A stretch of 54,053 bases of DNA, the filler included, from Sphacelaria rigidula (taxonomy: Eukaryota): the NCBI GenBank assembly GCA_964200075.2. It is 4 parts of 4 records of this genome, joined end to end, with 100 filler letters (N's around TTAATTAATTAA, not from the genome) between each part and the next. Parts side by side here need not be neighbours in the genome. Positions count along the whole stretch, not along the records: positions 13,542 to 26,981 come from CAXNAA020002885.1; 3 more parts are not named here. The stretch is one strand, 5' to 3'. The notes beneath the pieces were generated by a model. It saw only the letters and a list, made by a program, of their open reading frames with translations. It was not told the origin of the DNA and did no database searches. Made by a program: the position numbers and the translations under genes. This document shows positions 4,084-52,580 of this stretch, piece by piece; position 1 is the first letter of the stretch, and each line of letters starts with the position of its first letter.

Positions 4084-7000
4084 TTGCACACCCACCCACG
4101 CATTCACGTAAAAAAACAGAGCTTGGTGCCACCGACCGTGGTGAAACAAACACGCACACATGTAACCTTCTCCTGGCGAGCAACTCGTGGGCCATGCTCC
4201 ATCCGAACCGAGCGACGCGTGAACTCGATCAGTCACGATGACGAGTGGGCGGATCTCGAAAAGGATATCAAACGCGATGAGGAAAATGCAGTAATCAAGG
4301 CATCACAAAGAATCAAACGAGGAAGAAATCGTACTACCGAACGGAAGAATACCGGGACAGAAACAACCAGAGTGATCTCGAAGGCCGAGGTGCTCGAAAT
4401 CGACCACGTCGAGCTCCAGACATGTTCGTGCGGATGTCCGCGATGCGTCCCCGGCCGCGGAGAGGCAGAAGAAGAGCAACCGACCACGCAAATTGCGACG
4501 ACCGGACGCGACGACAGCAATAGTAATGGTCACCGAGAGTGTTCTTTATGTCTGCGCTGTGCAAAAAAAGGAGGCGAAGTAACAACTACGCGCGGAGTAG
4601 GGTGCTGGCGACCTGTATATTGGGGCAACGAAAGATGCTGCAAGGTCAAACTGGAGCACAGGAATGCGCTGCAGCACTTCCGGCTGTTAGTCCGCGCGCG
4701 CAAACCCCCGCCGGGGAGACGAAACTACCTGCGGCCGACGGGCCGGGAATTGCATTCGCCACCATTGTCAGCAGAAACAAACAATCGTCCTTCTCCTCAC
4801 GGAGTTATCTCATCGCGGGCGGCTGGCGCGATCATTCCGCGACGAGAAAAGCCTAGCAGGACGGTGCTCTACAACAACGTCATAGATTCGTGCAACGCCG
4901 GATCACAAACAATATCAACAGGACCACAGGGTGGACATATTGATCACAGCAGTGGTCATCCGCAGGCAGCGGTTGATGCTGCGGTACTTCACCGAAATGT
5001 CAACAGTACTTCCCTATCCGACAATGAGGAACCGCCAAGATGGTTTGTATCCGCGCCTGTGTTTATAAATACACACCCTCCTCCGGTCAAGCTTCATGGG
5101 TTGGGCACGACGCTGGTCATAACTTGGCCGTCCCTTACTAGCTTCTCGGGGTCGGAATGCGTGTCGTACGTCTTGGAACAGCGGTCTCGCCCGGTGCGAT
5201 CAGCACGGTCGGTCAACGGTACAACCGCGGACATCTTCCACAGTCGACAGCTAAATCATTTACCTACTGCTAGTGCGGGTGGTGTCGGCGACGGTGGCCT
5301 TCGCGGCAGTAGCCATTGCGCCCAGAATAAGGTAGGAAAGAGAAGGGACTGTGTCACTCGCCAACACCCCTGTCCGGGCAATAAAAACAGCAAACGCCGT
5401 CATTGTCGACATGCGGCGCACCAGAACGAGTCGAAACAGGTATTTTCGGTTGGGACTCGATGTTGGTTTGTTCCTACCTCTCTCGCGCCGGGGCACCTGT
5501 ACCGATATCGGCTGAGGCTTGTTCACGAGGGCGAGTGGAGCATCGCAGGTCAGTGGGTTTCTCACATGACTACCGTGCCCCCACCTCGGTGTATAGGAGC
5601 TGCCGGTGCGCAGGGCGTAGTGATTTCTCTCCCGAAAATCTCCAGTACGCGCAGCGGGGCCTCCAGAGACGATGGTACCAGAGGCGAGGGGGTATACTCA
5701 CGTGGGGTTCCAGAGGTCACTGCGGATCTGGGAACAGAAGCCTTTTCTCAAGGGGAGATCGATCTTGCACGAGCAAAGGATTCTTCTGGGGGAGAGTATA
5801 CAGACGGAGCGAGCAGTGAAGACGATGGCGAAGCCCCGAAAGATGAGGAAAATCCACTGACTTCGCCAACCCACAGTCCCTGTGGTAGTGAGGCATTTTC
5901 GAGAGAGGGGGGGGAGGAAAAGAGCCATCAGGCGGGGGATGTGCCGCAAGAGATGGAAGAGATGGGGACACCGGTGGTATGGTACAGGCTGACGGGTTCG
6001 GATATGCCAAATCGGTGGCGAGTGGTCTACGAAGGACCGAGCTCTCAAGTTGCTGTACAGGTGAACTACCGTTTCCGGAAGGGAGAAAACAACTTGTAGA
6101 AATCAACTAAAGCTGGAATGTGTGGGTAGTGAAACGGAGTATGAATGCACCTCTTTGCGTTTAACGAGCGCATTTATCTGGCGTTTTGTTCATAATACAA
6201 CGTGTGTTATTTCCTCCCCGTGCATGCTAGTCGCAGTTTGGATGCATCGCTTCCGTAGGGATCATGGGTGAGAGCTCATACCCAAAACAGTGTAGCCGAA
6301 CTAGATGACTCGCACTCTGTCCCCACGCACTCCTTTTTCTTCTCGATTTGGTATGGATGCGTGTACTGTGCGCAAGACCGTCTTTACCAGAAGCTATGTT
6401 GCCGACGCCCGATGCGTGTGCTGTGCGCAAGACCGTTTTCACCTGAAGTTATGTTGCAGACGCCCGTCATTTCTACTTGACTTTCGTCTCTGTCTTTGTT
6501 ATGTTTTGTTTTGTTTTGTTTTGTGCTTTTTAGAGTACGCCTTGTGCCTGTTCCACCTTTTTGTTGTCTTCACGTTCCTTCAGCAAGTGCTTCCGTTTTT
6601 TTCATCTCCGGTACGTCTATCATATGAACATGACTGGATCCCTAGGGGAGGACTAAGCATGCAATCGTTACTCAATCAATTGATTAATCAATTAAGTGGG
6701 AAAACTCAGTTCTTTGTCGTTGGCTGAATCAAGTTTTATCGCAGGCACTTAGTGCAGTGTTGTTGAGCCGCGACCGATCGTACGTGTCGATTCTGCAACT
6801 GCCTCTCGCAAAATGTCGCTCATGCGCTGCTCCCCCTTCGTGTTATACCGGCTGCTCCGAACCCCGCTCGGCGTGCACCTCAAAATAAGGGTCTTGAACC
6901 CAATGCGCTGTTCTCGTTCCGAGTAACGGTGGACGTCGACCTAACAGAGCTGAGGCGGCGTGCTCTTAGCTCCCTCACATCCCTGGGTCTTGAAGCACCA

Positions 7001-10000
7001 CCAAACTCGGTGCTCTCGACACCTTCGGCTCTCATTGGATCCTGCAGCCCTACACATAATGGGAAGGATACCATAGCCGACACCACCATCCTCAAGGACG
7101 CAACCCGATCGGAAACTGGTCCTATACTTGCTGCTTCAACAGCCAATACTAGACACGGGTCAGGCAGGGCGCAATCGTGGCGTTGGACAGTTGATGACAG
7201 TGCGCCGTCACCGAAATCAATAGTTGTTCAACCAGCTGCCCGGAAGGGGACGGTCGGCGGTGCCGGTCCCGGCGCAAGCAGCGGGTCAGCATTATCAGCA
7301 GTGCAGTCGGGGATATCTTCCCCCAAAAACACCGGGTTGAACGGCAGTTTTTGTGCACAGCGGCAGAGGATACGGTCTTGGAGTCCTGCTACCAGCCCCG
7401 TCATGTCGCAGTTGAAAAAGGAGGGGTTCGCGATCCATGATGTGGCTTTTGCCACAGACAGCGGGTATTTTCCTGAACCGCCAGCACGGTCCTCAAGACG
7501 GTGGGGAGATACCAAAAATCGATTGGGGACGAGCGAGTATGAACCTCTGGATCGATCGGATCCAGCTGTATTCGCGACCGCACCGCGAGCGCCATTTTTT
7601 ACAAGTTTCGTCTTAGATGGAATTTGCCAGGTGATAAGCACGCCGATGTCTTTGAAGTGAAACTACAACACCTAATATCGACTTCAACCCTATGCCGTTT
7701 ACACTTGGGGGTGACGAAATCGTTTATGGGATTGACATCACAGATCTCAAACACTCTGTCCAGGAACCGATTCCGCGGGGTAACGTTTACCCGAGAGCAG
7801 CGCTGCCTACGCGAACCTGGAAGCAGTCATGCAACACTACCATATGTAATTATCAACTGTCTCGTCTTCACCGTACTCGAAACACCTCTGCACCCTACCG
7901 GTTTTTTATCACAACACGATTTCTGCAGGTTAAAGTATGGTGGGCACCACCTCAGCAAATCGTCGACATCCACGGGGAAAGGGCTTGCCCTTCGACTGCT
8001 CACGTTATCTCCAACACAACCGAGGCAACCGTCACAGCCATGCCTGCTTCGGACTTGGCTATGGCGAAGGACGGCTGCAAGCGACAGTCAGGCACGACCA
8101 ACATGGGATCATCCAAGCGAAGCACGCACTCCACGCCAAAAGGGCACGACGCGAGAGGAACTGTGAGTACTGCACACTTGTCACCCCTTTCTCAGCAGCA
8201 GCAGCAGCAGCAACAGCAACAGCTACGACAAAAACAACAATACCCTGTGTACGTGCTGCAGGCATTCGATCCGGTGTCTGGAGACGCTCGGCCGTTGTAT
8301 TCTGGTACCGACCGGTGGACTGATCTGCCGCAAATATTCGCCAATTTACCAATAGCGCCAGCGACTGCCTACTTCCTGACACTCTCCGCGAAGGTATCTG
8401 CCGAACAAGCTGAGAGTAAGGCATCAGGAGTCATCTTCACAGCTCCCCCAGCTCCCGTTCTAGAGCTGGTCGGCGGCGGGGTAGTCCCTCCGCTCGCACG
8501 GACCTTCCAAGGCGAGGCAAACGTAACAGGAGAAGACTCGCCGGTCGGCGTTAGATTGAGGGCATTCTGGGTCGATACTTTTGACACCATGTTTTTGCCC
8601 GCAGAAGAAAAACAAGGGAGCCACAAAGAAACAGACGTACATTTGCCACCGATATCTGTAGCCCTCGAAATGTCGCGGGCATGGACGGCCGGTCCACCGG
8701 ACCGTGGCGCGGGCGGAATTATGGCCGGGACAATACCTAGGTCTGGCCCAACCGGCCTGTCTGGGGCTCATCCGTCGCGGGAGCTCGACCTGAAACGGCT
8801 GGGAACTGTTGGTGGTGGTCGAACACAGAGGGGTAGGTCTTTGCTACCGGGCAATGCAAAGAAGGGAGAGTCCGGCAAACTTGCGAACAGCGAAGACAAC
8901 AGCGGGATCGTGAAAGGAGATGCGGGCGGAGGTTTGTGTTGGACGCTCGATTCCAGCACATGGGACCGGCCTCCAGGGGGGACAACAGCCGGAGGGTTCC
9001 GCGATGTTTGGAGGGGTTTCGACGGGGAGACTGAAGCATTCACGCCTAGCTTGCCTCCCGGAGTTCGAGTAGCTTTTCGCGTGCGTGTGGACTGTCGCTT
9101 TGGGGTTGCGTATTCTGCGGCCACGGTGTACCAGACTGCATCGGTCGTGCCTCCACCCCCAACGGTAAGTAAGCTGCGCTGAGGATTTGGAGAAAAAGCA
9201 CGATGAGATGGAGGGTTTTCGGAATATATTCGCCCACCGATTGGGCACAGCAACAATTCTGTCGCATGTTTCTGGTCAAACTTTGAGCCTTGGCGACAAT
9301 AGAGCATTACTGTTGCCCACTGACGGTTGACAGATGTACTCGTTCAGTCGGAGAGCGGGCCACTCAATTTCTCCACGTTGGCGAAATGGACGTCACCCTT
9401 GATACGCCCATCTGGCCACGTAACGAGGACCTCCTCATTGCACCTTCTACTAGCACCGCTGCCTGGACTAGTAATGTGCTATCGATGCAGTGATTGCGTC
9501 GGTCCTATTTGCCAAACATGCCATGCTCACGCGAATATGAATTCATGTTGACAAACACCAGGGCCTTCGAGCGAGCGTGACTACCCACGAAAGCAGGGTA
9601 GGAAAGACAAGCAGCTGCTTGTGTCTGACGTGGGACCTGGCTGCCCCCGGTCATGGCAGAAATATCGCCACGTCTTTTACTGTTCAGGTAAGTAAGTATC
9701 GCATTCAGAAGCTCCCGTAACATCGTGAGTGACAGCATTACACAAGTACTTACACTTGCCTGCCACGCACATTCCTGGACACTACTCTGCCGTCTATGAG
9801 TCTATGGGGTCAACGTAGAGGCTTCAGCTCAAAACACGTCAGAGCGGTGAAATGGACCGCATTCCCTCCTCCGTCACCGCTTCCACTTACCTTCAGGCGT
9901 GGTATATCCTGAGTCTCCCTGGAAAATTCCAGGGCCAGCCGAAGCTCACACACTCTCATTCGCCCTCACACCTGCCCTATTACACATAATTCGCTCCGAA

Positions 10001-11079
10001 CACCCAATGAAAAATAAGGTTGACCCCACTCCTTTTGCGTGCGACATTCCACCCAGGCGCGTCGCTGCGGGAGCAACACCACTGAACAGTCATGGCACAA
10101 TGTATGCACCTGCCCGGCACCCCCATGCGTCGACCCGAACACCCTCGGCACGCCGCGCGTAGCTGCCCACTATCGCGTGCGGGGGCATGGTCCCGGGGGT
10201 TCGGGTGATTGGTGCAAACCTCTACCAGTCGACCTGCTCGTAGCCGGGGAATCTCTTGACGTCGACACGGCCGGGGATGGATGCACGATTTCGGTTATTC
10301 CAAAGGAGGGGTCAGTTGTGACGATGGACGACAAGATCATGGTGGCCGACAGTAGCAAGAAATACTGCGGACGCTCTCCGATGCCCTACCGTGCATCAGG
10401 CTCGCGAGAGCGCGACTCGCTCACGGGCGAAGTGCGTCGAGCGTGGCACGCGCGGGGAAAACTGATGAAACGGCCGTTGCAGATGCATCCGCCGTCGGCG
10501 GCCGTCGCGGCCGCTGTGTCGGGGGCGCCTATATCAGCGGCGATACATCTGAAGTACTCGCCATCCGACTATCGCCACAGACGCGCTGGCGGCAGCAAGC
10601 AGTTGCTCTGGGGTATGCTCGCTTCTCCACGAGAGTCTCGAATGTGTCGGGCCGCAGCGGCGATGAAACGAGGGGAGAGGGGTGCTGGGAGATCTGGTGG
10701 TTGTGTTGGCCGTGACATTCCGACGTGTATGGGCATCCGCCCTCTGCAGCTAGGTTGTAGTGGTGATGGTGCTATTGAAAATGGTTTAGATGGTGTAAAA
10801 GGTGCAGGTGGAGAGGATGCGAGAAGTGATTGGCAGGCTAGCATGAGGGTGGTCGATGGGTCTGGGTCTTCGGCCCAGCAGCCGTGTGGATATCAGCGGC
10901 TGGGGAAGATGTCGAGCAACGCTATGCCACAGGCGTTAGCGCTGGTTTTACGTGAACAGTTGGACATATCTCCATCGTCAGCTATCCCAGGTTTTGCCGC
11001 GCTATCGGATACAATGGAAAAAGAAAGAGGGCGGCATTTGGTCGATGGTGAAACATCTGTCCCCGGTCCCGATGGGTGA
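4084..11079 (+). CDS. Multi-exon fibronectin type III domain protein (partial model). Exons ~4231(?)-6060, 6890-7630, 7929-9164, 9562-9687, 10057-11075/11079
   Basis: Phase-0 GT-AG introns join split FN3 motifs: YEGPSSQVAVQ|GLEPNALFSFRVTV, LPPGVRVAFRV...PPPPT|GLRASV..LCLTWDL..SFTVQ|ARR..HYRVRGHGPGGSGDWCKP, and LAPGHLYRYRLR. The start codon and 3' end are uncertain. Confidence 0.8.
8193..8223 (+). repeat. (CAG/CAA)n polyglutamine tract inside exon 3
   Basis: cagcagcagcagcagcagcaacagcaacag encodes Q10. Confidence 0.9.
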
Positions 11080-13441: not shown

Positions 13442-13541
13442 NNNNNNNNNNNNNNNNNNNNNNNNNNNNNNNNNNNNNNNNNNNNTTAATTAATTAANNN
13501 NNNNNNNNNNNNNNNNNNNNNNNNNNNNNNNNNNNNNNNNN
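13442..13541. other. Artificial contig linker (N44-TTAATTAATTAA-N44)
   Basis: 100-bp spacer with a core giving stops in all six frames; identical at 26982-27081 and 40519-40618. Confidence 0.98.
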
Positions 13542-15320
13542 GCCACTTCAGCCCCATATTTTGTATGAACCCCAAAATATAAAATCGGCTGTTAATTGCT
13601 AAGGATGCTTTCCGAAAGGCCGGTACTCTGCTTCCCTGATTGGGAGGCAGTACAAGATGGCTCTCGCCTTTTTTAACTCCACGCTGACGCCAGCACGAAC
13701 AGATTTGGAGGAGTTTTGAATCAACCTCAGGTTGATGGCTCCGTCCGAGCCATCCCCTATATCAGCCGCGCCACCCTGCCGAACGAGGCCAATTAGAGCC
13801 CGCTAGAACTGAAAGGCGGAGTAATCACCTGTGCCATCAAGCGCTTTCGACATTATCTGTTTCACGTGCCCTTTCAGATTTATACGGATCATGGAGCACT
13901 CGAACAACTCGCCAAGATTAGCGTAAACAACCCGAATGTAAACGATGGTTGGAGTTTTCAACAGCATGCCAGTATACTATCAAGCAACGTCCAGGCAAAA
14001 CCAACGGGAACGCTGATCTTCTTTCTCGACTACCCCTGCCGTCTACGGTCGCAGATTCCAGCCTGGCATGCCATTTAACGGAACCCGATGAACCTGGAAT
14101 TTACCGAATTAGACGTTTTTCAACGCCCGTTTACGCCCTCGACCTTCAGTGCCCAGAAACTGGTATGCATATGGGAGGACCTCGCCCTCTAACATATGAC
14201 GCCGTCTTGGGTGGGTTAACACCCACCACTACCTTCGATTTTGTCGCATTTTCGGTACTCGCGCGAAGCTCTTCACAGAGACACCTACAGTCACCCACCT
14301 AATCTCCGACAACACGCGCTCCCGGTCTGCTGCCCGCACCACCACCCCGAGTGCCCCGCCGCCACCGATAACACTTGCAAATTCCACGAGCCACGTAGCA
14401 CCAGTCCCACGGACCAACACGCAACGAACGCTCCACGAAAACTCCTGCAACGTGCACCAGCCGCCGCGGACAATCTTGGCCGCGCACTGATACATCCCGG
14501 CTGCCCATAACGGCGCCACCAACATCTACCGCTCCCGAGCATGGAGCTGACGACTCAGTTCCTGCTCCCGCGGCAGATATTGACGTCGGCATTCTTGCCC
14601 CGTCGCCTATTTCCCCGCTGCCTACCCCACCATGTTTGGTCGGCTCGCCAGCGGAAGATCAACTACGCGATTATGTCGCCAGCTACTCTCACCGCGATTG
14701 GGGTCGCAAACAAAACACGGAACCGTTATGTTGCGCAGCCATCCGGTACTTACAACTTGACTGCCCAGTCCCTTTTCCATCCGCCCTTGACTTCGGTTGG
14801 CACACTGCCCCCACCAGATATCTCTGACGTATACGAACTCGTGCGTAAAGGCACCCTTTTTACTACGGATGTAGGTGTACAACTACTCGTGCGTCGCCCC
14901 ACACCTTTGACGGGGGCATTTTCCGTCTTCACCACGGGACGCCACGCACGGCTACTCGTTGACGAACCAACGCGCATCTATGTCCCATTATTAATGTGCT
15001 CCTGGGTCATGACAGGCTGTCACACAGACTTGTCGAGTCACCTTGACGTCACCCGCACCCTAGCGCGCTTAGAACGCTTCTACTGATGGGTTGGCACGGA
15101 AATTGCCACCCGCTTCTGGATTCGGCGATGCTTCAAATGCCAAGCTCGAAAAACTTCACGACAGGCAGTACGCTGGCCCGTCATCTCTATGGGACTTCCC
15201 AACGCGCCAGGCCACATTGTGCCCTTTGACTACTTTGGCCCTCTACCGATCACAGGTCGTGGCAACACCTGCATCTTACTCTTCACTGACCGCTTCAGTC
15301 ACCACGCGTCCATGTACGCG

Positions 15321-16464
15321 GGCGCGACCTATTTGCAGGTAGGTGGGGTATGCAAATAAGAGCGTGCAGTTCGCGAACGCCTCCAGAACCAATTCCACGA
15401 CATACCCAATTTCAAATGCTGAAGAGCACACGAAGCAACAGGAGGCGTACTTCACAGTAGCGCCAAGCAGGGCTGTAACACCTATCATATTTATTTTGTT
15501 GCAGAGCAGGATGATGTAAACGTAGAGCTAGGCGGCGATGAGTGTCTGCTCCATATTACCGGGAATCGTAAAATCAAATGTTCTTTTTTGGGGCGGGCAC
15601 TTCTTCAAGGCAATTTCTTAACGAAAAATATGTTGATAGTTGATAGTTGCTGCGGGATGGACAACAAGATATTAGCTGGGTGTTCAAGTGTAATCCTCTC
15701 ATGAGAGTGTGCATTACGTAATGGCAACCGTTCACACCCGTCGCAGTCCATGCACAGGAACGCAGTGCATCCGGGCAGATAACGACATTTGGATGCTCTG
15801 AGTACTATACACGGCCGTATAGCCGCAAGTACGGAAATTTGTGAAGTCACAACATCATTGTAATGCAAGTACCGTTGTCTGCTGCCTGCTGTGAGGACTG
15901 TACACTCACCATGTACAGTGGGCAACAGACAACAGCAGTAGTACAGGAGTACTACTGTACAGGGCCTATACTGAAGTGCTCTGAATAGTTGACAAGTGGT
16001 GCGATACAGGAATACTCCCACTACTCGTGCTGCCACTTGAATAACCTGCACAGCACACAGACACAGTGTACAGACAGGGTGGTGTCTTGTACAACAGCAG
16101 TGCAAAGTACGATATGGCGGTATTGTCGATGGCAAGCAGCTGATGGATACTGTAAACAGTCCGTGTCGTCAGGGCATCCATACAACCGAGCATGCGCGGT
16201 GCTTGGCTGGCCAAGAACACAAGACGGTTGTTTGCTCGTCAATATCGAGCAGAGCGCTCCTCGCTGCAGGCGTGTGTGGTCCCCTGCTTTACGACAAGAT
16301 GTTTTCTTTACTGCCCTGCTGTGGACTGCCGTGAGGCGTGATTGACCGTTGTTTCGTGCGCCCAGCATTTCGATTTGAAATTTGGTTTATGGTGGGTTGC
16401 TTCTGGAGGCGGTTGCGACCTGAACGTTCTTATTTGCATACCCCACTTGCAAATAGGTCGGGCC
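15321..16464. mobile_element. Non-autonomous Mutator-like (MULE) element nested in the gypsy A integrase
   Basis: Imperfect ~115-bp TIRs (GGCGCGACCTATTTGCA... / ...TGCAAATAGGTCGGGCC) and a 9-bp TSD ATGTACGCG (15312-15320) / ATGTAGGCG (16465-16473). Removing it restores the integrase peptide MYAVTAADFTAAGTADILIHDYI. Confidence 0.88.
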
Positions 16465-17130
16465 ATGTAGGCGGTAACCGCTGCAGATTTCACTGCCGCC
16501 GGAACGGCCGACATACTGATCCACGACTACATTGAGCACTACGGTTGACCGAAGCGACTCCTTTCAGACAATGATCAGCAATTTTTCTCAGATCTCTCTG
16601 ACGAGCTTTACAAGCTACTGGGCATCCGCAAGATTGCCACGAGCGTCTACCCTCCGAACGGTAACGGTGGTACCGAAAGAGTTCATCACACCATGGCCCA
16701 GATCCTCTCTAAGGTTGTCAATTACCGCCAAAATGACTGGGACCTACACCTCTAGCACATCATGTTGTTCTTCAACAACTCGTTTACCACCGCCACAGGC
16801 CTTTCTCCGAACGAGCTCTATCTTGGACGTTACCCTCGGCTGCCCATCACCGTGTTTGAGCGACACACGTTCGATGGCCACCAAGGATTGGATCAGGATC
16901 AGATATCCTATCACGAGCTAGTGCATTCACGACAACGCAAAGCGTTTACCCTCGTGCGCGAACAACACGTTATCAACGCCTGACGCCTGGAGAGATCTAT
17001 CACTGCTCTACAACTTCATGCACAAACGCCCCAACTGGAAAGTTGGTGATTGGGTTTGGATCTACAGCAGTTTGTCGACCATCCGCCAAGGCACCAGCAA
17101 GGCAGCCAATGAAAACATTTCAAGACAAAT

Positions 17131-18036
17131 TTGTCCCTCAATTGGACAAGACCATTCAAGATCCTGACAGCCGGACCATCGCCATCATCACCGGATGATA
17201 CACCCGTTGGTGACAAGCTGCTCTATCTCGACCTGCCTCGCGACTTCCAGGGCAAGGACACCAAACCCCGCGTCTCCGTGCACAGATGCAAACCCTGCAC
17301 GAACCCACATAATACAAGCGACATGCCCAAGTACCTGCCGGCTGGACTCACACAGTATGTTGTCAACAGCTACTCGACCAAGTCCCCGCCGTACCATATT
17401 ACCACCGAGGACGTGACGGAACAGCCCCTCCGCTTGACCGTGTCTACCATCTCCGGCCACCAGATAACCTGTGGCCGAGGTGGTAAAATTGCTGTCATGT
17501 ATAAGACCCACTGGCACGGTCTTCGGAGAGCGTCTTGGAAACGCGAATCCGACCTTGAATGGCATTGCCGTGCATTCCTTCTATACTGGACGAAATCCCA
17601 ACATCAGCATCTCGCTCACAGCAAGAAACATCGCAACATGCGTCGTGGCGCAGCAGCCCGCGAACTTCACCGCGGCCAGGGACTACGATTTGTCGCCGAT
17701 GGTGACGAACTTGTACCCACCAAGACTTGTAAGGTGAAGTTCTTTGCAAACCAGCGAGTACTACCCAAGGGCAGCTACCTTAGGTTCAAAGGCAGCGACA
17801 ACCTCTGGTGGTTGGGTCAGACCCACTCCGCTAACCTGGTTTCTGCCGACACATACATCGTGCGCTTCATCGATGACCCTGGACCCATACAGCTCAAGCT
17901 CCAGCCAGCACTATACACCACCAGCCCATCTGCACCACGCAGATCCTGGTGCCTTCAGCGCCTCAAGGCCGAAGGACTTCACCGCGGTCTCCAGCGCAAC
18001 ATCGACCACACCCATGACGTCCACGCACCGCTTTGA
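17131..18036 (+). CDS. Integrase C-terminal region of gypsy A: GPY/F-like motif, chromodomain and a further Tudor-like segment
   Basis: WTRPFKI; ISGHQ...VMYKTHWHGL..SWKRESDL (chromo-like); YLRFKGSDNLWWLGQ...TYIVRFIDDPGP (Royal-family-like). Confidence 0.7.
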   Translation: MSLNWTRPFKILTAGPSPSSPDDTPVGDKLLYLDLPRDFQGKDTKPRVSVHRCKPCTNPHNTSDMPKYLPAGLTQYVVNSYSTKSPPYHITTEDVTEQPLRLTVSTISGHQITCGRGGKIAVMYKTHWHGLRRASWKRESDLEWHCRAFLLYWTKSQHQHLAHSKKHRNMRRGAAARELHRGQGLRFVADGDELVPTKTCKVKFFANQRVLPKGSYLRFKGSDNLWWLGQTHSANLVSADTYIVRFIDDPGPIQLKLQPALYTTSPSAPRRSWCLQRLKAEGLHRGLQRNIDHTHDVHAPL

Positions 18037-18483
18037 ACCACGCTCCTTCGCTGCAACGTGTCCTCCCTTCTTTCGTATTGTTTTCCCACCCTTCTTCACC
18101 AGGACCCTACTCTACAACATCCACAACAGAACCACCTACATCGGACGACGATCGAAGAACTACTGAAGCCACCCACCATCTACACTACTGCAGCTCTAGT
18201 ATCCCCTTCCGGCTGGCGCTCGATTCTGTTGGATCACCGATTTTCAGTACTGATCTTGCCGTTTTTTCTCTTTGGATTCCCCCAGGTTGAAGCTCTGCTC
18301 CCTGTTGTACCTCCCTGTTTCCCCCCTCAGTTTTGCTGAGACGCCGAAGCAATTTTTACTTCTTCGTTGATCGCTAGCATGCAGAAGCAGTCTGTGCTTC
18401 CGGGTTTCGAAGCAGTTTTCCTGCTCCTCGAAGCAATGTATATATGCTTCCCTAATTTTGAGGTGTTGGAGTGGGTACGGGAG

Positions 18484-18939
18484 TGTTTCCTTACGTATGC
18501 TTTAATACTCGCTTATGACTTTACGAGTAAAGCAAAACCTTGAGTTTTAGCTGCTTCGAGGGTAAACTCCTCGCAGCTGTAATAGAGGTTCGTCTGGGTG
18601 GGTTAGTCTCATGAGGGAGCATACTAGCCTGTTGTCAAGCCGCCTCAGACCCGTCGATGAGTCTGGCTTTTATATTTGGTCCAGGCTAGTTTTAAGACTG
18701 TTTTAAGACTGCAGATCTGTTTACAGTTGGTCAGGTACGAGTGTGAACTTATATATGGCAGAGATGGTGATGGCTTGGGTGTATCTCTGACGACCAAGCA
18801 ACCCTACCTCACTACCATCTACCCCCTTCTTCCAGCAAAGAAGTCTAACACCAGTGAGACTGATCGATTGAGCTTGAGAGATTGGATTGAAAGATTGGGT
18901 ACTGTAAGGTTGAGACCAAGCAAATAAGAAGTGATAACA
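18484..18939 (+). repeat. Putative 3' LTR of gypsy A
   Basis: A G-rich PPT-like stretch (GGAGTGGGTACGGGAG) precedes TGTTTCC...GATAACA. No partner LTR in the window. Confidence 0.55.
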
Positions 18940-20949
18940 TCTACCTACGCGTGACATTTTGGTATCCTTGGACACATCAGTGTGAGACTGGTATACAGTG
19001 CGAGCGTACACTGAACAGTACCTTGAGGCTTTGTTGTACGGTATGTTGACTGTCCTCTTGCCTGCCTGGTGAGCCTGAGCTTGCCGTATACAGTAGCATA
19101 CCCCATCGCATCATGCGCGTTGCTTTCTGATGAGAACGTCAAAAACTGCCGATTTCTGTTCAGTTCTGTACTGATTGCGGTATCCCCATGTCAGGAAAGT
19201 TCGGCAGTGCTGTTCGACAGTATCTTTGCACGTTTGGCTGGATCCAAAGCGGCCACTTTCCGTCAGGTAACAAGAGTCATTTCAATCATGTGGACGTAGT
19301 TTAGAAACTCAAACTGTTTTGTTTATTCAGTCTTTGACCAATTCAGTACATGTTCTTACGGTGAGTGGCCTCTCTGCAGACAGCAGTCAGTAGAGCAGAA
19401 GCTAGCTATGATCGGGTTTGCCTGCCGCATTGCCGTCAGCGTTGCTTGAAAGCCATAAGACCTTTGCGGTCGGCGGTTGATGGCGTGGGTGTCAAATGCA
19501 ACGACAAGTGGTTGATCATGGAACCCTCTTCTTGTTCCCTCGTTGAGTCATATCTCACCCCGGCTTGTCATGCATGACCTCCTCACATCGGAATTAATTC
19601 TGGGAAGCTACTGTACCGAGGTGTTCACGCGGCCAGTGTGTGCTCGAAATTGCAGCATTGACGCACCCCTCTGCACCACGCTAGCAACAGTTACATCACC
19701 ATAGGTATATTTTTTCATTCCGCATGTCAACAAGGTCTCCACAAGTGTTTGATCTCTCTCTCTCACACACACACACCCCAACTAGCCTGTGGCACCTAGA
19801 TGGTCACATGTCGGGTAAAATCAACGATGAATAACACACCCCAAGTTCAAAATTGGATCTGTTGTTACTGGCGCAGCACCGCCCTTGCTGGCCTGTGTGT
19901 GACAGAGAACAGTAGTAGCGGTGACGGGAACATTGCTCTGTTTGCCAACGACATGTTTTTCAGCGCATAGAGGCGCGTCCTGTCTACAAAAGAGAGGCAG
20001 AGATATATCGATCTTCGCATTGATGAGGTCCATAGACAAGAATAGACGAAATTCATCCGCAGCTCGACGTTTTGGGGGGGAGCTGTGCGCAGCAACACAA
20101 TAAAATGCTTACCGGCACATGAGAAATTGGGTACATGCTGGTAACACCCATGATGCCAGTCTTTCGATCGATTAGTGATCGCCGAGCGAGGACACACAAA
20201 GGATGCGGGCGAGGAGCTTTCTCTCTGTCGTTGCTTCTCTCTCTCGTGATTTCGTCATCGACACGCGTGTACACCGCATTCGTTCGGAGCACCTTGCCAC
20301 AACTGATTCACTGCTGCAGAGTTTTGGGGGGGAAATGGTTTCGCCCTGTGTAACTGTTTCGCGTCATCCCTGCAAAACGATATGCCACTTGAACCTCATT
20401 TTAGAGATCGATCACATTTTGCAGGATCCACTGTTTATATATATATATATATATATCACGTTGAATCGACGAGGACATACTGATTTGAGAATATGTGTAC
20501 TGACTAGACGCAACAGCCACTTTCTACAATAGCCCTCCCTCACAAAGTGCCTGGTTTGGGGAGCCAAAATCTTCACGTAAATCTAAATGGGAAAAGCCGT
20601 GCACAACGAGCAGCTGGCAATTCCCACGATTGCGTTTGTTTTTTCGCCAATGCCGCCCATATGAGGCGCTTCATGCAGCCTGAATCCAAACATCAGGCGC
20701 TGTATGACCAATTTTTTCGCGACACTTTTGGGCTGGTTTGGGCGGGGGGCTGTCGTAGAAAGTGTCAACATCCACCCCAATCAATCGATACAGACAGGCG
20801 GCCGATGAGCACGGACGCGCTGTTTGACATGTTGTGCTGTGTATACTAACCTACTGTGTCTGCTGTGAGTGTGGGCAGGCGGATATGCAGCACAGGCTCC
20901 TGAAAAATGTGGTTGAACATTCAAATGGGGTTGAAGTCGCTTTCCAGGA

Positions 20950-21255
20950 GATCACATTTTACGTGAGACACTTTTGCACAAACAGCTGAACATTTCGCCG
21001 CAAACTCGGCAGTTCCATCGGCATTGATGCTTCAAATGAAAACATGTGTACTTGATGACAATATTTTACAGTTTCTCCGTTTTCTACCGGCTTCCGGGAG
21101 TCCCAGAGTGAAGAGCCCCGGAAGGCGCTACCGAATACCTCAAGAGAAAAAAAACGAGCGTCCCGGGGCATTCCGAGGAACATGTACAAATGTTGGACGA
21201 GAAAGTCGAAAACCTCATACAGCTTTTCACACCTTGACCGTGAATACCCTTGAAG
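20950..21255 (-). repeat. Dispersed repeat family R1, copy 1
   Basis: Its reverse complement aligns by eye with 44640-44960 and 53740-54053 (shared blocks GGGACGC, CTTCCG.GGG, CCCGGAAGCCGGTA, ATCAAT, GGAACT, AGTTTG). Confidence 0.8.
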
Positions 21256-21299
21256 GAGGCGTTCTCATACCAAACCCGACTGGTGAGGAATCTACCAGG

Positions 21300-21700
21300 G
21301 GTGTACACGTTACACACTATACGTTCACGTTCACGTTACGTTTATCAGGTGAAAACAATGTTACGTTAACGTTTCATTTGAAATTTAACATTACGTTCAC
21401 GTTACGTTCATCACGTGAAAAAACCATAACGTTACGTTACGTCACATATAACGTGATATAAAACATTTCATGTAACGTGTAACGTCTAGTATAACCTTAC
21501 GTTGACACGTGTAACGTTCGAATGTAACGTTTCATTCTGGTCATGTCGTGGCTGATTCACCAACAAGGCGTTGTAACGTGTCGTATAACGCGTGGCGTCA
21601 CCGTGTATGTGACAATGACGGTGGCCCATCCTATGTTTGAGCGTAGGCGCATGATCTGGTTGTGTAACGTTACTTCCTCTACCGTGTAACGTTCGTATGT
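21300..21700. repeat. Low-complexity ACGTT/GTAACGT array
   Basis: Dense (T)TACGTT / TTCACGT motifs followed by TGTAACGT motifs in the opposite orientation. Confidence 0.7.
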
Positions 21701-22162
21701 TTTTGATCGTATTATTTTCATATTTCCTCTTTTCGTTTAATCTTTTTGTTGCCGACCTTCAATTTTCAATTTTCGAATGCTCGGTCATTCCCACGACAGC
21801 ACATACCGTACATACAAGAGTTCGTTAACATAATTGAACGCCGGCTTGCGTCGTCCTGGTATTTCGCCGACAGAACTATATCGGGTACCCTAGTTTTTCT
21901 ACATACTTATACTGTACATATATTGACCCTTTTGGGACCGGGCCTCTAGAACAACCAATGAGGCTGGTTAGGAATGTACGAAAGTTCCATCTAATCTATG
22001 TTCAGGTTGTGACGAAAATACGCCGTCACGTTGAGTATATCATGGTGATGATTGGAGCATACCTTGGGATTTGTAGTGATGATATGGACGATGACATGGA
22101 CACACGGGTGATACCTGATATAGTTCATGAAGCCGCCTGGATGGCACTCCTGACTAATGGAA

Positions 22163-22470
22163 TGTTGTAAAGGCTGACAACTGAAACTGAGGCCAGTAAG
22201 ACTGGGGAGTCCCTCAACGGCAGTGCTCCAACAGTGCTTCCACTGACTGGCGTCACAATATCGTTATTAGTGCCAATGCAAGTGAGTGCTAGAAATCTGC
22301 TGAAAGGATCTCGGCGGAGTGAGTCTGGCAGCTGGGGACAACCTGGCATCACGGACGCGTGGAGAGGGTTTCAGCTAAGGCGGCTGCAGAAAGGCGGATG
22401 CCCTGTGATTGATCTAGACTGGGGGCTGAAGCTGCGTGCAGCGGGAGTTTGGAGGCAGGCTTCTACGACT
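22163..22470 (+). repeat. Putative 5' LTR of gypsy B, followed by a PBS-like TGGTGCGGCGACG at 22474
   Basis: TGTTGTAAAG ... CTTCTACGACT form imperfect inverted ends; a TGG-initiated motif lies 3 nt downstream and the gag ATG is at 22498. Confidence 0.5.
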
Positions 22471-25400
22471 GTGTGGTGCGGCGACGAAGCAAGGAAAATG
22501 CGATTCGCGAAGGTACGCTGGCCTGCAGAGGTTCGCAGGTAGCCGGTTACAGCTACAGCTGTGGCTACCAGCTCACGAGGTACGTCCACAGTGACACCCG
22601 TGATCATGCGGGAAGAATTGCGACATCCTCAATACGGGGACAGGTACTCAGAGAGTGCATCTCGCACTTTTTATACAACATACTTACAGTGTAAGAAGCG
22701 TGTGGAGCACGCTGGGTGCCGTGCGGTATCAGGTGGTGACTATGGCTCAATGAGTGCCGACTCATGTACAGAGAGTGTTCGCTCGTTTGGAACATAACGA
22801 GAGCACCATCACCTCGCCGCAATTGGTTGCGGCGATCAACAAGCATGCTGGGCATGCGGCGGGCGCCGAGATAGATCTGACCCAAGCGTCCGCGGCCGTG
22901 GCGAAAGCTGTTGCAATGGATTCTGGGGGGAAAACGGTGTTGGAGCGTGTGGAGCCCATCTTGGCTAATTTGGAGAATTACTTCACGGAAAATCCGAACG
23001 TAGAACTAGTATACCGTTCCCCCGATGGTGAGTTCATTCCTGGCCCGGCAGCAGTAATCACTAAGGCTTTGGTGGAGGGGTTGGCATCGGAAACTTTCAA
23101 GCAAGTCGTGCTTGTCAAGCTGCAGAACCAATCAGATTGGAAGGACGACCCGTACCTGGTGATGAGCACCGTCGTCGCCGAGGCCAAGGAGTGGCGGAAA
23201 ATAGAGATGTTCAGCCAGTCGTCCACCTCTTCGCTGAAATCTTCGCGCAACCATGGCTCGAAATCGGCTGGTCGCGCCGCGAGTATTACTTGCTACCGCT
23301 GTGGTCAGGTCGGCCATTACGCGCGCGATTGCCCAACGTCTTCCGGTGGAGAGTCTGGGCAGTCTAGTGACGCGCGCCTTCAGCGATCGTCAGCACAAGG
23401 GCAAAAGACGAGGTAATCATGGTGGCGGCGGCGGATCCTCCGGCGATGGAGGGTCGCAGGCGAGCCCTCCGCAGCAGCAGCCGCAGCAGCAGTAGACCCA
23501 GCAGCAGCAGGGGCAGCGGCGTCAGCATGGGCCTGGCTCTGGGTCCGGCGCCGCCGTAGGTGCTGCTGCTCCGCAGCGGGCGGTGCAGGTGGGCCTGACT
23601 TCTACAAAATCGAACATTGCGCCGGCGCCGATGGTTGCGCCGATGGTGGCGCCAGCGGCGACACCGGCAGCAGCACCAGGCGCGACGCCCGTTGACGCGC
23701 TGGTCGGAGGGTCGCCAAATTCTTGGTTTGCTGGCTGGGGGGCGTACCCGCCGGCGGTGCCGTTTGAACCTGCCGGGGCGTCATCACCTGCGCAGCTTGC
23801 GCAGCCGTGGCGTCAAGTGGGATTGACGGCGCATAGGTCAGCGGAAGAAGTTCCCGTGGAGCTTGCCGACAGATACATTGCGGCGGAGTTATGTCTTCCG
23901 AATCAACGGCAGCGTGGGGCCATTGTGGTTCGATCTGTGTTGGATTTTGGCGCCCACTTCACTAGTCTGCCGGTGCAGATGGTTGAGATGCTGGAGCGAC
24001 AACTCCCGGGTGTGCCGCTGCGCATCCTTTTTTCGCTCGGGTCGCGGCAGGCAGTCACAGCGTCAGGTCAATATGTTTCAGTCACGGAGCGTACTGTTCC
24101 GTTGCAGCTAGCCTTGAAGATTGCTTGGGGGCTGGCGCCGTTGCCTCCGATCTCGCTCGCGATTATGCCAGGGTCGGAGGGCGTTGTTATTCTGGGGCTG
24201 CCGACGCTACAGGACCTAGGAGTAGACCCGTATGAGCGGTTGAAGGACCCCATCAAGACGCGGATGTCTCCGCCTGGCCCGCACGTGGAGACGCCCGCCT
24301 TTTTGGGCAGTCGTCGCGTGAGCTTGTCGGTGGATGCTTTTCAGGAGGCTGGGGGGCAGGTGACCGAGAAGCGGGATGCGGCGGTGAAACGCTTAGTAGA
24401 GCGCGGCCCTTATATGTTCATGGATCCGGCGGAAGAGGAGTCCGCTCGGAAGGTCGCGCTGGAGGAGAGCGTGCCGGATGCTGTGGCGATAGGCCTCAGC
24501 ATCCCCAAAGCGGAACGCCTGCGCGGCATCTTGCATCGCCGCGTCAACGCGTTTCGTCCTGCGCTGCGGGGTGATCCTCCTGCGCGCGTGGAGCCTATGC
24601 GTGTTCAGCTGAAACCTGGGGCATCCGCGGTGAAAGTGAAGCCGCGGCGGTACGATCCGGTGAAGTCGAGCTGGTTGGCGTCGTGCATGGCGGCTCTTTT
24701 GGTGCTTGGGTTGATCGTCCGGAACCTGCAGGCGGTATGGTTCAGTCCGGCGATGGCGGTTCCCAAGAAAGATTCGTTTTGCCTGGTAAGCGACTACAAG
24801 GCCGTAAATAATCAAGTTGAGAAGTCGCCGGGTGTGATGCCCAATCAAGAGTCGGACATGCGTGATCTCTTAAGTGCTCGTATTTTTTTGGCAAGTTGGA
24901 CCTCGTCTAAGGTTATTGGCAGATGCCGTTGGTGGAGGAGGCGCAGGAGATTTTCACAATCACGACCCCGTTAGGCTTGTTTACTCCGAAGCGAGTACCG
25001 CAAGGCGTGTTGAATGCCACGGCATATTTTCAAGGTGTCATGACAGAACTACTTGTCGACTTGAAATGCAAGATATGGGTGGATGATGTGTTTTTTTTCA
25101 CGGATACGGAAGACGAACTTATAGACACGCTTGATGCTATCTTGGCCTGTTTAGAGAATGTTGGTTTGTTTGCGGCGGCGTACAAATCCACTTCCTTCGC
25201 TAGTGAACTCGTATGGTGTGGGAAGGTGTACTCACACGAACGCGTATCTCATGACCCTGTCAGATTGCAAGGCTTGTCTAACATGCAGCGCCCGGCGACA
25301 GCCGCAGAATTCGTGCAATTTCTGCAGGCCTTGAATTGGCTGCGTACCTCGTTGCCGCGTATGGCAGAAGCCGTAGCTCCCTTGCGTGTTTTCCTCGAAT

Positions 25401-25482
25401 ATCTCATGGCGGGTGCTGCGAGGCGGACGAAGCGTGTTGCAAAAATCCGCGCTATTCCGCCTGCATCGTGGACGAAGGGTAG

Positions 25483-25745
25483 GTGAGCCATGCTATACGG
25501 TAGGGATGCACTTTTTTCGCACGATCTTGTTTGGTTCAGGGTATCCTAACGATTCTAGATGCACAATAATATGGATCAGGGCATCCCCGCTTACACGGTT
25601 TATTCGGGATGTCCCTAGCATAGTGGAATAGTAATCCTGGCGTGCTCTCACATATTTCATAACTTGTGTTTCGGATGAGATGAAGGGCTCCTAACAATTC
25701 GAAGCTCAGAAAATATTTGTGCACCTCTACCGTAGCATCACTCAG
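25483..25745 (+). mobile_element. 263-bp TIR-bounded insertion with exact GT...AG ends (introner-like MITE) in gypsy B pol
   Basis: Left end GTGAGCCATGCTATACGGTAGGGATGCAC; right end GTGCACCTCTACCGTAGCATCACTCAG. Removal gives in-frame WTKGR|SQALAAAKGLMDHAVTLFHP. Confidence 0.8.
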
Positions 25746-26981
25746 ATCGCAGGCGTTGGCGGCAGCGAAGGGTCTGATGGATCACGCCGTGACGCTGTTC
25801 CATCCTCTCCCTGATCGTCAGGTGCTAATGTTTTCGGATGCATCTGAGTGTCATTGGGGTAGCTTCGTTACGCAGTTGCCTAAAGCGAAAATGCAAATAC
25901 ACCTGCCAGTTGAGGACATGACGCATGAACCGCTAGCTTTCCTCAGTAGTCATTTTAAGGGTTCGCAGTTGCGTTGGACCACAATTGATAAGGAAGGTTT
26001 TGCTATCGTAAGCACTTTTCGTCGTTTGGAGCATCTTTTGTGAGATGGCGTGCACATTTTCACCGATCACCGAAAGCTCGTGTATATTTTCAAACCGGAA
26101 GCGTGCGTGACATCTGTGTCGAAAGCATTGGCACAACGTTTGGAAGGTTGGAAAGCTGTTCTTGGCCAGTACCCTTACTTGATTTGCCATATTTCGGGTG
26201 ACCGTAACGCGTGGGGTGACTTGCTTTCGTGTTGGGTGAATATTCCGGCTTAGCCTGCGCGCGCTGTGGCTGTGTATGGTCCGTGTGAACCTGATGACTG
26301 GATGCCGTCCAAATCTGTTATCCGCCAAGCGCAACGGAAAGACTTGGGGCCGAAGATGCGGATGTGCAATCTTTTGAGTCGGACTCGGTACTTCTATCTT
26401 GGACAATGAAGGTCTGTTTCGTGTGCATGTGCGTGGCCGAAACGTTTTGTGGATTCCGAGGTCTGACAATCAGTTGCAGGTACGTCTGATGATTTGCGCG
26501 CACATGCGCGATGCTGGGCATCGTGGTGTGGCTGCGACGCTCGTGCGTTTGCAAGAGTTTCGTGTTTGGCAGGGGATAGAAAGTCATGTGCGCGGATTTT
26601 TCCGCCAGTGTCTGCACTGTGCTGACTCGAGGGCGGGCGATATTGTTCCCCGCCCGCTCGGCGAAACGGTCCATGGCGCCACGCCGAATGAAGTCGTTCA
26701 TTTTGACTTCTTGTACGTGGGCGAAAGTGGCCCGCTAGCTTCCCAAGGTTTGTCGGAGGATGCTGGGTTTCGATATATTTTGGTAATCATGGATGATTTG
26801 AGCAACTTTGTGGCTCTGGAACCAGTAAATAGGGAATTCTATAAAATGAGGTTGATTAATGAAATTAAGTTTGAGGAGGCTAGTCAGTATGCGACAAGAA
26901 CCCGAGGAAAGTACCGTCCGTAAGTGCCTTCGATCTATACCGGGGGGGGGGGGGTGTACTCATGATCATGCATAGATACCG

Positions 26982-27081
26982 NNNNNNNNNNNNNNNNNNN
27001 NNNNNNNNNNNNNNNNNNNNNNNNNTTAATTAATTAANNNNNNNNNNNNNNNNNNNNNNNNNNNNNNNNNNNNNNNNNNNN
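26982..27081. other. Artificial contig linker
   Basis: N44-TTAATTAATTAA-N44. Confidence 0.98.
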
Positions 27082-40518: not shown

Positions 40519-40618
40519 NNNNNNNNNNNNNNNNNNNNNNNNNNNNNNNNNNNNNNNNNNNNTTAATTAATTAANNNNNNNNNNNNNNNNNNNNNNNNNN
40601 NNNNNNNNNNNNNNNNNN
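40519..40618. other. Artificial contig linker
   Basis: N44-TTAATTAATTAA-N44. Confidence 0.98.
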
Positions 40619-44960: not shown

Positions 44961-46587
44961 TTTCTGGGTCTTTTGTGCATATCATCGGTGGAAATTCGAC
45001 GACGCCAAAGTCCCACTTCACCAAAATACCACAGTTTTGGGTGTAACTCGAGCCCATTGTACACCATTTTCGAATCTGTGTTTTAGTCAGATTCCCAAGC
45101 TGATGGCGGGTACTACGATTTGAAACACGTGGAGATTGAATACAAATTGGTTGAGAGTTCGTGTTTTCAATCCCAAAACAATTTCAAGGGCGCTCATTGG
45201 TCGAGGTACCTTTTCGCCCTTAGTGCCACCGCTACGGCCTTGAACGCAAATCTGGCCTTGAACACACATCCGGCTGTCACCCTCTTCGTTTGTTCGTTTC
45301 GGTCAATATGATACCATATATGCGACGATTGGGTAGGAATTGCGGGAGACATTCGCTGATGACACATCTTTGGGTGATTAGCGTGAACCAGCCTGTAGTT
45401 CGGTACAGACGGTCATTGTTGCTAGAGACGGCACGCTACCCGGAACACGAAGCTGCAAGAGGACGACAATGTCATTCTCAGTACCATTAGCGCCACTGCT
45501 GACGTTAATAATTGGCGATGTTGATGCCCTATGGAATCACGGGTACAGCTTCCAAAACTGCTCGGAAGGCAGGTACCGCCACCATCCGCGTGGCATTTGG
45601 CATGAATGCTCTGGGCATCAATATATACTGGAGGTAGCCCTTCGCTCGTTGGCGAGGCGAGTGTCACCATACCCTACACTGACTAGGTGGTCGGAGCATA
45701 CACCATCCCCTCATTGTCAGCGAATTTTACCCTGACTCAGTCACCCACACGATGTTCATATTTCCGATCTCAGGTGTAAACAAGTGAAGAACATCACAGG
45801 AGCTTTTTTACGTGTGCCTAACATTGTGACCTCCAGTATAGAGTTGCTGGTGTGAAAAGCTGGACGATGATGGGTACTTGCGATACGATTTCAGCCGCAG
45901 ACGGTTCCAAAGTTGTACGGAGTGGCGTCGCTGAGGCCGGTGTGGACACGGTAGCAGGTGAGGCGGGTCTCGACAAGCAATGGAATGTGTGCATGTCATT
46001 GAGAACATAACGCATGCAGTTGACACCATTGTACAAGGCCTACAGCTGAGCGCATTGTTGCATTCTCGAGCACGAACGATTACGCGCGAAAGTAGTTTCA
46101 TTCATTTTGCAATTTGCGGTCGATGGGCGTACCAACGCGCATACAACAGTAATCAAGTGCGCATGTTCGACAGGCCGCAGATACACAACACAGCGAACTA
46201 AACGTCCAGTCTACCTCATCGCGTATGATCAAACCTGCAGTGAGTTGAAGTGGTGGGAATATCGCGTGTCACCATGGGCAATTCGAAAGTGGTCCGACGA
46301 TGAATTTACATTACCCTTGCCCCCAGGCACGTGGTGTCGGAAAATGGTTGAGGAATACCTACGATGATTTCCCATCATTCTGTCCCGTTCTTCGCCGTAC
46401 GTGCAGTATTTTTACCGACCTAGGTTGCGTCATGAGCTCGCGATGAATCGGGCGTTTTCGATTCTTAATGATTTACTCAAGTTAAACCGGCAAGTACTCG
46501 TTCCGTAATTTCGCCCCAGGCAGCGACCTTTGTCTGGAGGCTTTCATCATTGCCCTCAACCAGACCTCCCTCACGGGTGAGCTGTAC

Positions 46588-48525: not shown

Positions 48526-48811
48526 TAGTCCCTACTGTCATCACTCTTCTGACTCTCTATGTTCATCAACTCTTCATCAGCTTCCTGTTTTGAGAAGGAA
48601 CTGAGTGTTTTATTCTGTGTTGGCCAAATAAGCGCCTGTCAAAACTGCCGACTTCTTTAATTTACTGCAGGGCGCACGTGTGCTTCACCGCCACTGTGCA
48701 CGCCCTGCGGTGTCCTCATCACTGATATAGTCGAAATAGCTCCTGCATGTGGGACAGTTGAGCGACTGAGCCTGTATTTTGTCTTCAGAAGGCTAGATTA
48801 TTTCCATTAGC

Positions 48812-50106: not shown

Positions 50107-52580
50107 CCGCGACAAAACCAACTACTTCGCGCTGACTGAGTGGCTTAGTGGTGATGTTCGTTCTGGCGAACAAGAGGAGTGCGAGCTCGATTCTCGGCCC
50201 GGTCACTTCTTATTTCGCGTTTTCGTGGAAATATCTCAGAGTGGCCTCGCCTCCCTGATCACCTTGGTAGCGTTGGTGAGGGGCGTCCCGGGGAAGACAC
50301 CGAGAGATACGAACTCAAGAACACTTCTTTCGTTCGTTCTGACGAAACCTATCTACTGTTGTGTTGACCTGTCACACAAGAACGGCGATGTAAGTCAACA
50401 CACCAACGCGTCAATAGAACGTTGACACAATAATGTAGGTATTCCCGACCTCCTGTTTCTCTCCATTCGGGGATCAAATCGCTGTAACCCCTCCCCAAAC
50501 ACGATGGGGGGTGGTATATACCGTTGTGGCCCGATACATATGGATTTACACACAAGTGACAATGCCCCTGAACACGTGCGAGACATCGCTCAAACGTGTT
50601 CACCCTATACACTAGTTTCATGACCTCCCCCTCCCCCCATCTGGGTTCCCAGGGGCAAACTCAATGCATCCCCTACCCGAACAAACTAAGCGGGAAGGAG
50701 GTGTTGTCCGAGATCTTATTCATTTGCGGATACCGATAAAACTGAACACGTGACCGGTACCGATAGGAAGCCTACAATCTACCCTAGGCAGTGTTACATT
50801 CCAGCATTCTTAGCGGGACTATATACACTTCGGGGAAGACCTTGTTACATACGAATGGCGATGCTCCGGAACACGCGAGAGGCAACGTTCAGATGTACCC
50901 ACCTTACCCCACTGCTTCATCACCCCTGCCCCTGGAGGAATAAAATAAACTCATCATCTCCCCGAAAAGAGTGGTTTGACGGAAGGAATGCGCTTTTTTT
51001 CTGAGGCTCTCTGCACTGTCGGAGCGTCTGGATGACAAACATCTGGGCCTTAGTGTGTAGCCTCAGAATGGTTTTGAACTATAATGTGCATCCCTACCGT
51101 AGAATCCCTCAAAATAACAGCAGAAAGGGGTGTTACCCGATGCATGGTTCATTTCCGGCCGGACAACAATTTATCCGAACACGTGAACGATACCAATAAA
51201 CAGCCCATCACCTACTGAAGGTAGTGACACATGTTCTTGTGTCACAAGAATCCAGACACCCCGGTCATATCGTTCCATCTCCGTCACAAGTACGCGCTGG
51301 GAGCGAAATCAATCGTCAGGGCCTGTTATGGGGATGTCCATGAACACACGAGGGTTGTGTTCACGTGAACTTTTACATCCTCCTTGCTGATTTGAGATCA
51401 CCCTTCTCCCGCTTCCCGACCATGATAAGAGTATATCTCCTCCGCAAACACCCTCACCCGAGGGGTGGGGTTATGTGACCGTTTGCAGGCGAACTACACG
51501 ATGATGCTTCTGAGCGCATGACAGGTATCGTCAAACATCGACACCCTCACTATGTACTCCTAGGAGGATCAGGAGCACCACCGTTTGCGACAGGACAAAA
51601 CGGTGGATACCACGGCCAGGTACGGCTACTTCTCTATCCCTGGAAAATCCTGTTCCACCCTCCATGCCAAGAAAGTCTTGATGGTCATGGGTTCCCCACT
51701 ACATTACCCCAACCCGAATGTGAACGACTACTGTAACAACGTTTTCGTGAGATTGAGAGTCTAGCATACGGTTGAGAGTGAGAAGCGATCAGCCAATGAC
51801 GGGAATAGTGTCCCTTCCAAAATACTACTCCGAGTCTTACACGAGGCCTGATACGCTTTCTCTGTAGTAGCGTGTCACTGGAGCCTTCGATATCCCTGCG
51901 TAGGGTATCGACATGTAGTAGCTGAAACCCAACCTCAATCAAAGCTAGACTCTCGTTCTCACGAAAACACTTTTTAGATATTATCACCCGACATACGCGA
52001 TTCGATCTTCACACTGTTGCTGCAGGCGCGAGGGGTAAGGCCTTTTATTACTGGAAGTAAACAATCTCCACCTGTACGCAGATTGGGGGAGCTCAAATAG
52101 GGAAACACATTCTGCGGACCCCAATGTGGACCAGATCGTGGAAGCTCAAACCGGAATGTCACGATTTGAAAACGATCTCCCCCGAGTTTCCGCCAAATTG
52201 GGGGAAAGTTAATCTTCACCCAATCTGTACGAAGTGACATACGTGCAGTGACGTACGGCGACAGGGCAACAGACGTTTGATATTTTGCGACCACAGCAGC
52301 AGACAGTCTCGCGACAGCGCGCAGGCGATTCCTCTCCGCCGGCTGCTGCAGGAGCTGCGCATGGGTTTGACGAGCGGATAAGAAGTGTTGACGCCGTACG
52401 TTGCGGCGATGGCAATATTACAGGTGCACTGCGCTGCCGTATGTATCACCATAACCAACGGTATTATACTGTCCTTCCCCCTTATGTCCCTGTACTTGCA
52501 GGATGATGTACGGCGCTGCACTACTGAACTCTTCTTGCACACTATTGGCTGTTCTCAACACGAGATCTCACAAATTAGTG

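Follow-up and report, generated by a model that had tools for sequence, protein, structure and literature searches.

An intron-like insert in a Ty3/gypsy-like pol of Sphacelaria rigidula, probably a MITE at a duplicated AGGT target

A 263-nt stretch inside a retrotransposon of the brown alga Sphacelaria rigidula begins with GTGAG, ends with CTCAG, and can be removed without breaking the reading frame around it. Does it belong to a transposon family that generates introns, or is it an ordinary transposon whose target site gave it the look of one? The window, meaning the whole stretch of DNA that was analysed (54,053 nucleotides, filler included), consists of four pieces, each about 13.4 kb long, with linkers of the form N44-TTAATTAATTAA-N44 between them (N runs at 13442-13541, 26982-27081 and 40519-40618). 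The joining is artificial: there is no physical linkage between features of separate pieces. The insert lies in the second piece (13542-26981). The answer we consider quite likely is that the insert is an ordinary MITE of high copy number, lodged in a decaying gypsy element, with intron-like ends that come from a duplicated AGGT target.

The insert and its host retroelement

The insert is real, with the boundaries AG/GTGAG and CTCAG/A that a sequence-only reading had assigned to it (slashes mark the boundaries). Its left edge reads ...GGGTAG/GTGAGCC at 25482/25483 and its right edge ...CATCACTCAG/ATCG at 25745/25746. The branch-point-like CTAAC motif said to lie about 50 nt before the AG is present at 25691-25695, and a further CTAAC occurs near 25546, also inside the insert. 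Taken together, GTGAG, a CTAAC 50 nt upstream and CTCAG make a good-looking putative intron. With 25483-25745 left out, the reading frame becomes ...WTKGRSQALAAAK..., and the translation aligns without gaps, over 282-289 residues, to all 15 of the homologous polyproteins compared. The in-frame fusion that had been proposed is thus borne out, and so is the placement within a retrotransposon pol: the insert interrupts a Ty3/gypsy-like pol at the point where RT passes into RNase H (Table 1).

Table 1. Coordinates of the insert, its parts, its host and a second element with the same terminal repeats
Feature	Position in window	Strand	Basis or remark
Degenerate Ty3/gypsy-like LTR retrotransposon, cut by contig end 26981	22579..26830	+	Pfam, tblastn of P0002, in-frame stops
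gag zinc knuckle PF00098	22754-23416	+	Pfam
RT PF00078	24911-25483	+	Pfam
RNase H PF17919/PF17917	25684-26043	+	Pfam
Integrase zinc-binding domain PF17921	26378-26923	+	Pfam
GT..AG interval of the sequence-only reading	25483..25745	+	263 nt = 2 + 259 + 2
MITE proper, GAG...CTC, non-coding, 259 bp	25485..25743	+	Right edge: contig divergence; left edge: repeat symmetry and alignment to the second element (both orientations)
Left terminal inverted repeat	25485..25511	+	Arm alignment; core ACGGTAGGGATGCAC recurs at 51086-51100, minus strand
Right terminal inverted repeat	25719..25743	+	Arm alignment, repeat-core search
Left target-site duplication copy, AGGT	25481..25484	+	Ends in the GT of the putative 5' splice site
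Right target-site duplication copy, AGAT, 3/4 identical to left	25744..25747	+	Starts with the AG of the putative 3' splice site
Second, shorter element, 142 bp, same terminal repeats, other interior	50969..51110	.	AAAA flanks at 50965-50968 and 51111-51114

The host has the domain order of Ty3/gypsy elements: gag zinc knuckle, RT, RNase H, integrase. Its best pol homologues, 80-82% identical, are polyproteins with the same domains plus PF00665. The named homologues come from Ectocarpus sp. CCAP 1310/34 and from S. rigidula itself, apart from one, the gypsy-type polyprotein P0006, which is 69% identical to the host pol and filed under a Marinobacter MAG; stray algal sequence in the bacterial bin is the probable explanation there. 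The public runs that contain the stretch are labelled with one coded organism, 'algae metagenome' or 'protist metagenome', and none of those listed is on record as RNA. Together with the named homologues, these labels make a brown-alga-like source plausible, whereas protein-atlas clusters of Mollusca, Basidiomycota and Oomycota gave similar scores and did not discriminate. In a tblastn of P0002 along the host element, the alignment passes through frames 1, 2, 3, 2, 1 and 2. Besides the insert, the frame changes near 22710, near 24880 (in a T run) and at 26340-26384, and stops interrupt the frame at 24908 (TAA), 26041 (TGA) and 26251 (TAG). Some of the frame changes could be assembly errors; the three stops are not. 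Judged by its sequence, the host pol is a pseudogene. Because frameshifts and stops lie elsewhere in pol, a transcript spliced free of the insert would still not encode a functional protein, and since the host pol is dead, nothing would select for a spliceable insert.

Several other features of the window were observed in passing. A copia-type reverse transcriptase (RVT_2, E = 1.3e-28) at 2-1294 (+) runs off the start of the first piece, where open frames at 4027-6096, 7656-9179 and 10024-11076 (+; 690, 508 and 351 aa) have no Pfam match at E <= 0.001. Open frames at 13922-18036 (+), ahead of the gypsy element, resemble by eye the end of another retroelement pol and have no Pfam match, and a 42-nt ACGTT-rich repeat is present in three partly overlapping copies at 21327-21434. 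A long open reading frame with FNIP repeats (PF05725, E = 4.3e-45) spans 46486-47604 (+), with more such repeats at about 48785-49495; the periodicity of the repeats accounts for overlapping long open frames in other frames and on the opposite strand there. Long G and C homopolymer runs at piece ends (26943-26957, and from 27127 onward) may mark assembly breaks.

Terminal repeats, target site and the origin of GT and AG

The imperfect terminal inverted repeats (TIRs) of about 27 bp described from sequence hold up, with 22 matches, 4 mismatches and one 2-nt gap over 28 columns. The arms pair 25496-25511 with 25719-25734 (16 nt, 88%) and 25484-25495 with 25733-25744 (12 nt, 83%). None of 5000 shuffled versions of the insert, and one of 4848 random 263-nt windows, gave an alignment score as high as theirs, 15. 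The ends also pair when the insert is folded as single-stranded DNA (z = -2.83; 2 of 200 shuffles fold as well). Rfam gave no match to the insert at E <= 1. A search of the 54,053-base window for the repeat core, allowing up to three mismatches, gave six matches and no autonomous partner; four of the six belong to the two elements of Table 1, and the remaining two, with three mismatches each, lie at 6242 and 42263.

The second element, located in the fourth piece of the window, carries the same repeat core as the insert. Aligned in either orientation, the two have in common just their ends, GAG to CTC, and their interiors are unalignable. There may accordingly be several MITE subfamilies that use the same ends around different interiors. 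The bases outside GAG and CTC differ between the two elements. In both copies examined, a target-site duplication (TSD) lies directly outside the repeats, AGGT/AGAT for the insert and AAAA/AAAA for the second element. The latter matches at four of four positions with no fifth matching base; as it is a homopolymer, its length is bounded, at most 4.

The shared repeat stops at GAG (25485) on one side and at CTC (25743) on the other, and the GT and the AG therefore lie outside the element. The splice dinucleotides would thus be pieces of the duplicated target. A TIR transposon was correctly recognized from sequence, but its own ends are not the exact splice sites that they had been taken for. The suggestion that the flanking AG could be a 2-bp TSD was right in tracing the AG to a duplicated target and wrong in the length, which is 4 bp and takes in the GT as well. 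We considered a 2-bp AG duplication around an element that itself starts at GT, and rejected it: the GT is absent from the second element in both orientations and is unpaired in the right repeat.

An AGGT target, an element running from GAG to CTC and a 4-bp duplication together give AG/GT-GAG...CTC-AG/GT, from which removal of GT...AG leaves AGGT. Removal of any transposon together with one TSD copy restores the reading frame, so in-frame restoration is no evidence of splicing. The residues GRSQ result from either excision, whether GT..AG or the element plus one TSD copy is taken out, since Arg is encoded by AGG as well as by AGA. Of the five excision windows, which are equivalent, a GT..AG interval arises only if the duplication is AGGT. 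This tetranucleotide is expected at about 1 in 256 random insertions and has a frequency of 0.0033 in the window; finding it at one of the window's two copies is a mild coincidence.

The course of events that we propose is as follows. A non-autonomous cut-and-paste element of 259 bp, with TIRs of about 27 bp, would have been mobilised by a transposase acting in trans. A 4-bp staggered cut would have opened an AGGT that lies, in one Ty3/gypsy copy, within the RT/RNase H linker, and AGGT would have been duplicated on repair. The left copy, joined to the element's GAG, would read AG/GT and then GAG, while the right copy, following the element's CTC, would read AG/(G or A)T. The boundaries GTGAG...CTCAG would then be a by-product of one target site and not something that the element carries.

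Copies, empty sites and rival readings

Logan contigs of four public runs were aligned to 24400-26950 at 80% likeness. Run X4 is labelled 'DNA?', the kind of X1 is off record, and X6 and X7 are RNA by guess ('RNA?'). Contigs that match the insert up to 25743 (...CACTC) and then diverge number 381 in X1, 399 in X4, 54 in X6 and 55 in X7; X1 and X4 may have loci in common, so that 381 and 399 are not independent counts. Beyond 25743 these contigs carry unrelated sequence, 255 letters at the median, with a flank agreement of 0.32-0.37. By these contigs, the family numbers at least several hundred copies in the alga. Mean word depth in X1 is 0.69-1.13 million over the bins of 25518-25775 against 0.03-0.08 million over 25346-25431 and 25432-25517, a 7- to 38-fold ratio, although word depth is no copy number and is similarly high in places elsewhere in the retroelement. 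In the public-run contigs, depth over the right repeat (25690-25775) exceeds that over the interior (25518-25689). A repeat pattern and a central-consensus pattern had no matches in public metagenome_contigs, and two repeat patterns had none in public genome_contigs and viral_contigs; these searches are not informative on the alga's own genome.

The left edge of the family was set by repeat symmetry and by alignment to the second element, not from read data. Near that end, contig depth in the bin 25432-25517 is low, and several alignments are interrupted at about 25527; the loose letters past this break still show the terminal repeat. At the right end, the divergence point is two bases before the AG. 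Most copies do not have splice sites at a fixed offset, for similarity ends at CTC. A match that continues to 25745 is found in a single row, of 7 contigs in X6, against 54 in that run that stop at 25743. The flank consensus after CTC starts with T, not AG, in four of four runs, and its next letters disagree, which gives no basis for calling a TTAA or TA target. Nothing here suggests that AG-type targets are preferred.

Insert-free copies of the retroelement are present in X4, in X1 and in both 'RNA?' runs. Their joints lead from 25478, 25483 or 25484 to 25749, 25750, 25752 or 25760, skipping 264-275 nt; each has 1-12 replaced letters, and the net length is mostly unchanged. In most, seven letters stand between AAGG and GCAGGCG (ACAGGCT or GTAGGCT, for example), the same spacing that the window has after removal of the 263 nt (GTAG+ATC). 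These joints come from diverged copies without the insert and not from spliced products. One uninterrupted paralogue (X1, X4) matched through 25484 and resumed at 25749 with a single T between; the uninterrupted site would carry a single AGGT, as read from the joint table rather than from the contig itself.

These data bear directly on what the insert could be other than a MITE at a chance AGGT. That it is an ancestral intron of the host retrotransposon family, and no insertion, is a reading with GT..AG boundaries and in-frame removal in its favour and nothing else. The uninterrupted pol of all 15 related proteins and the insert-free paralogues in X4 and X1 led us to reject it, the insert sequence being moreover a repeat at hundreds of other loci, and we regard it as next to impossible. 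Another reading keeps the family ordinary and has this one insert spliced, at 25482/25746, from read-through transcripts of the retroelement. The canonical AG/GTGAG and CTCAG/A with CTAAC 50 nt upstream would suit it, as would the presence in the 'RNA?' runs of contigs from related retroelement copies. However, the exact 25482 to 25746 joint is absent among the 15 of 90 joints listed (the RNA kind of X6 and X7 being guessed), contigs at least 99% alike to the window copy are just 3 of 520 in X6 and 6 of 574 in X7, and the stops and frameshifts elsewhere in pol leave such splicing no functional consequence. We think it unlikely.

The reading that would matter most is that GAG...CTC ends, a 4-bp TSD and some AGGT-like preference make the family a recurrent source of introns, with both splice sites co-opted. 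The window copy has exactly the geometry needed; with TIR ends, either orientation in a sense-strand AGGT should give GTGAG...CTCAG, and such architectures have been published, in the account of Symbiodinium and Florenciella introners in PMC9860276. The X6 contigs that reach 25745 are 11% of the total, as an upper bound, where chance would give 6% (1/16), an excess that is not significant (binomial P = 0.085). Against the reading stand the copies that diverge directly after CTC, most of the family, with T and not AG next in the consensus; the AAAA flanks of the second element; and the place of the sole intron-like copy, in a dead retroelement with no selection for splicing. Brown algal introns are moreover described as mostly ancient and stable in a preprint (10.1101/2024.02.19.579948), in the main text of which 'introner' and 'MITE' have no occurrences. 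We judge such a family very improbable. Hardly less doubtful is a latent form of the same idea, in which any hit on a sense-strand AGGT, in either orientation, would produce a canonical intron, GTGAG...CTCAG, whose splicing would restore AGGT, and a minority of copies would be recent brown-algal introns.

An ordinary MITE in a decaying gypsy element accordingly remains our preferred explanation. The sequence-only reading had a non-autonomous TIR element, a repeated family and a secondary insertion right; its further suggestion, that the insert may belong to an intron-generating MITE family, is not supported, with hundreds of copies stopping after CTC and the second element flanked by AAAA.

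Comparison with known systems

The locus serves as a worked example that GT..AG ends and in-frame removal do not suffice to call an introner, because any element with a 4-bp TSD that lands in AGGT shows both. If copies flanked by AGGT were spliced in genes, they would be the first reported transposon-driven intron gain in brown algae, and a generic MITE devoid of splice signals could then give rise to introns. Among the papers listed by full-text literature searches, none reports an introner family or transposon-driven intron gain in brown algae.

A 2025 survey (PMC12130899) traces the majority of classified introners to TIR DNA transposons. Gozashti et al. 2022 (PMC9860276) describe introners of Symbiodinium microadriaticum that have TIRs and a 4-bp TSD and draw one splice site from the duplication, and introners of Florenciella sp. 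that carry neither splice site and recruit both from the sequence at the point of insertion. The window copy resembles these in that the duplicated target supplies its splice dinucleotides and its removal keeps the length of the mRNA. Theirs, however, are many near-identical copies that are introns in genes, whereas here other copies are without AG at that offset, the intron-like copy sits in a pseudogene, and its splicing is putative.

The likeness to MITEs is closer: the elements are short (259 and 142 bp) and non-coding, with TIRs of about 27 bp, a short TSD, hundreds of copies, and subfamilies that have common repeats and differing interiors. The family here has a 4-bp duplication that is not TTAA and the ends GAG...CTC. 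The insert is also like other nested insertions in LTR retrotransposons, being a DNA transposon in a decaying Ty3/gypsy pol of which the paralogues keep the empty site; among such insertions, only its AGGT target is unusual.
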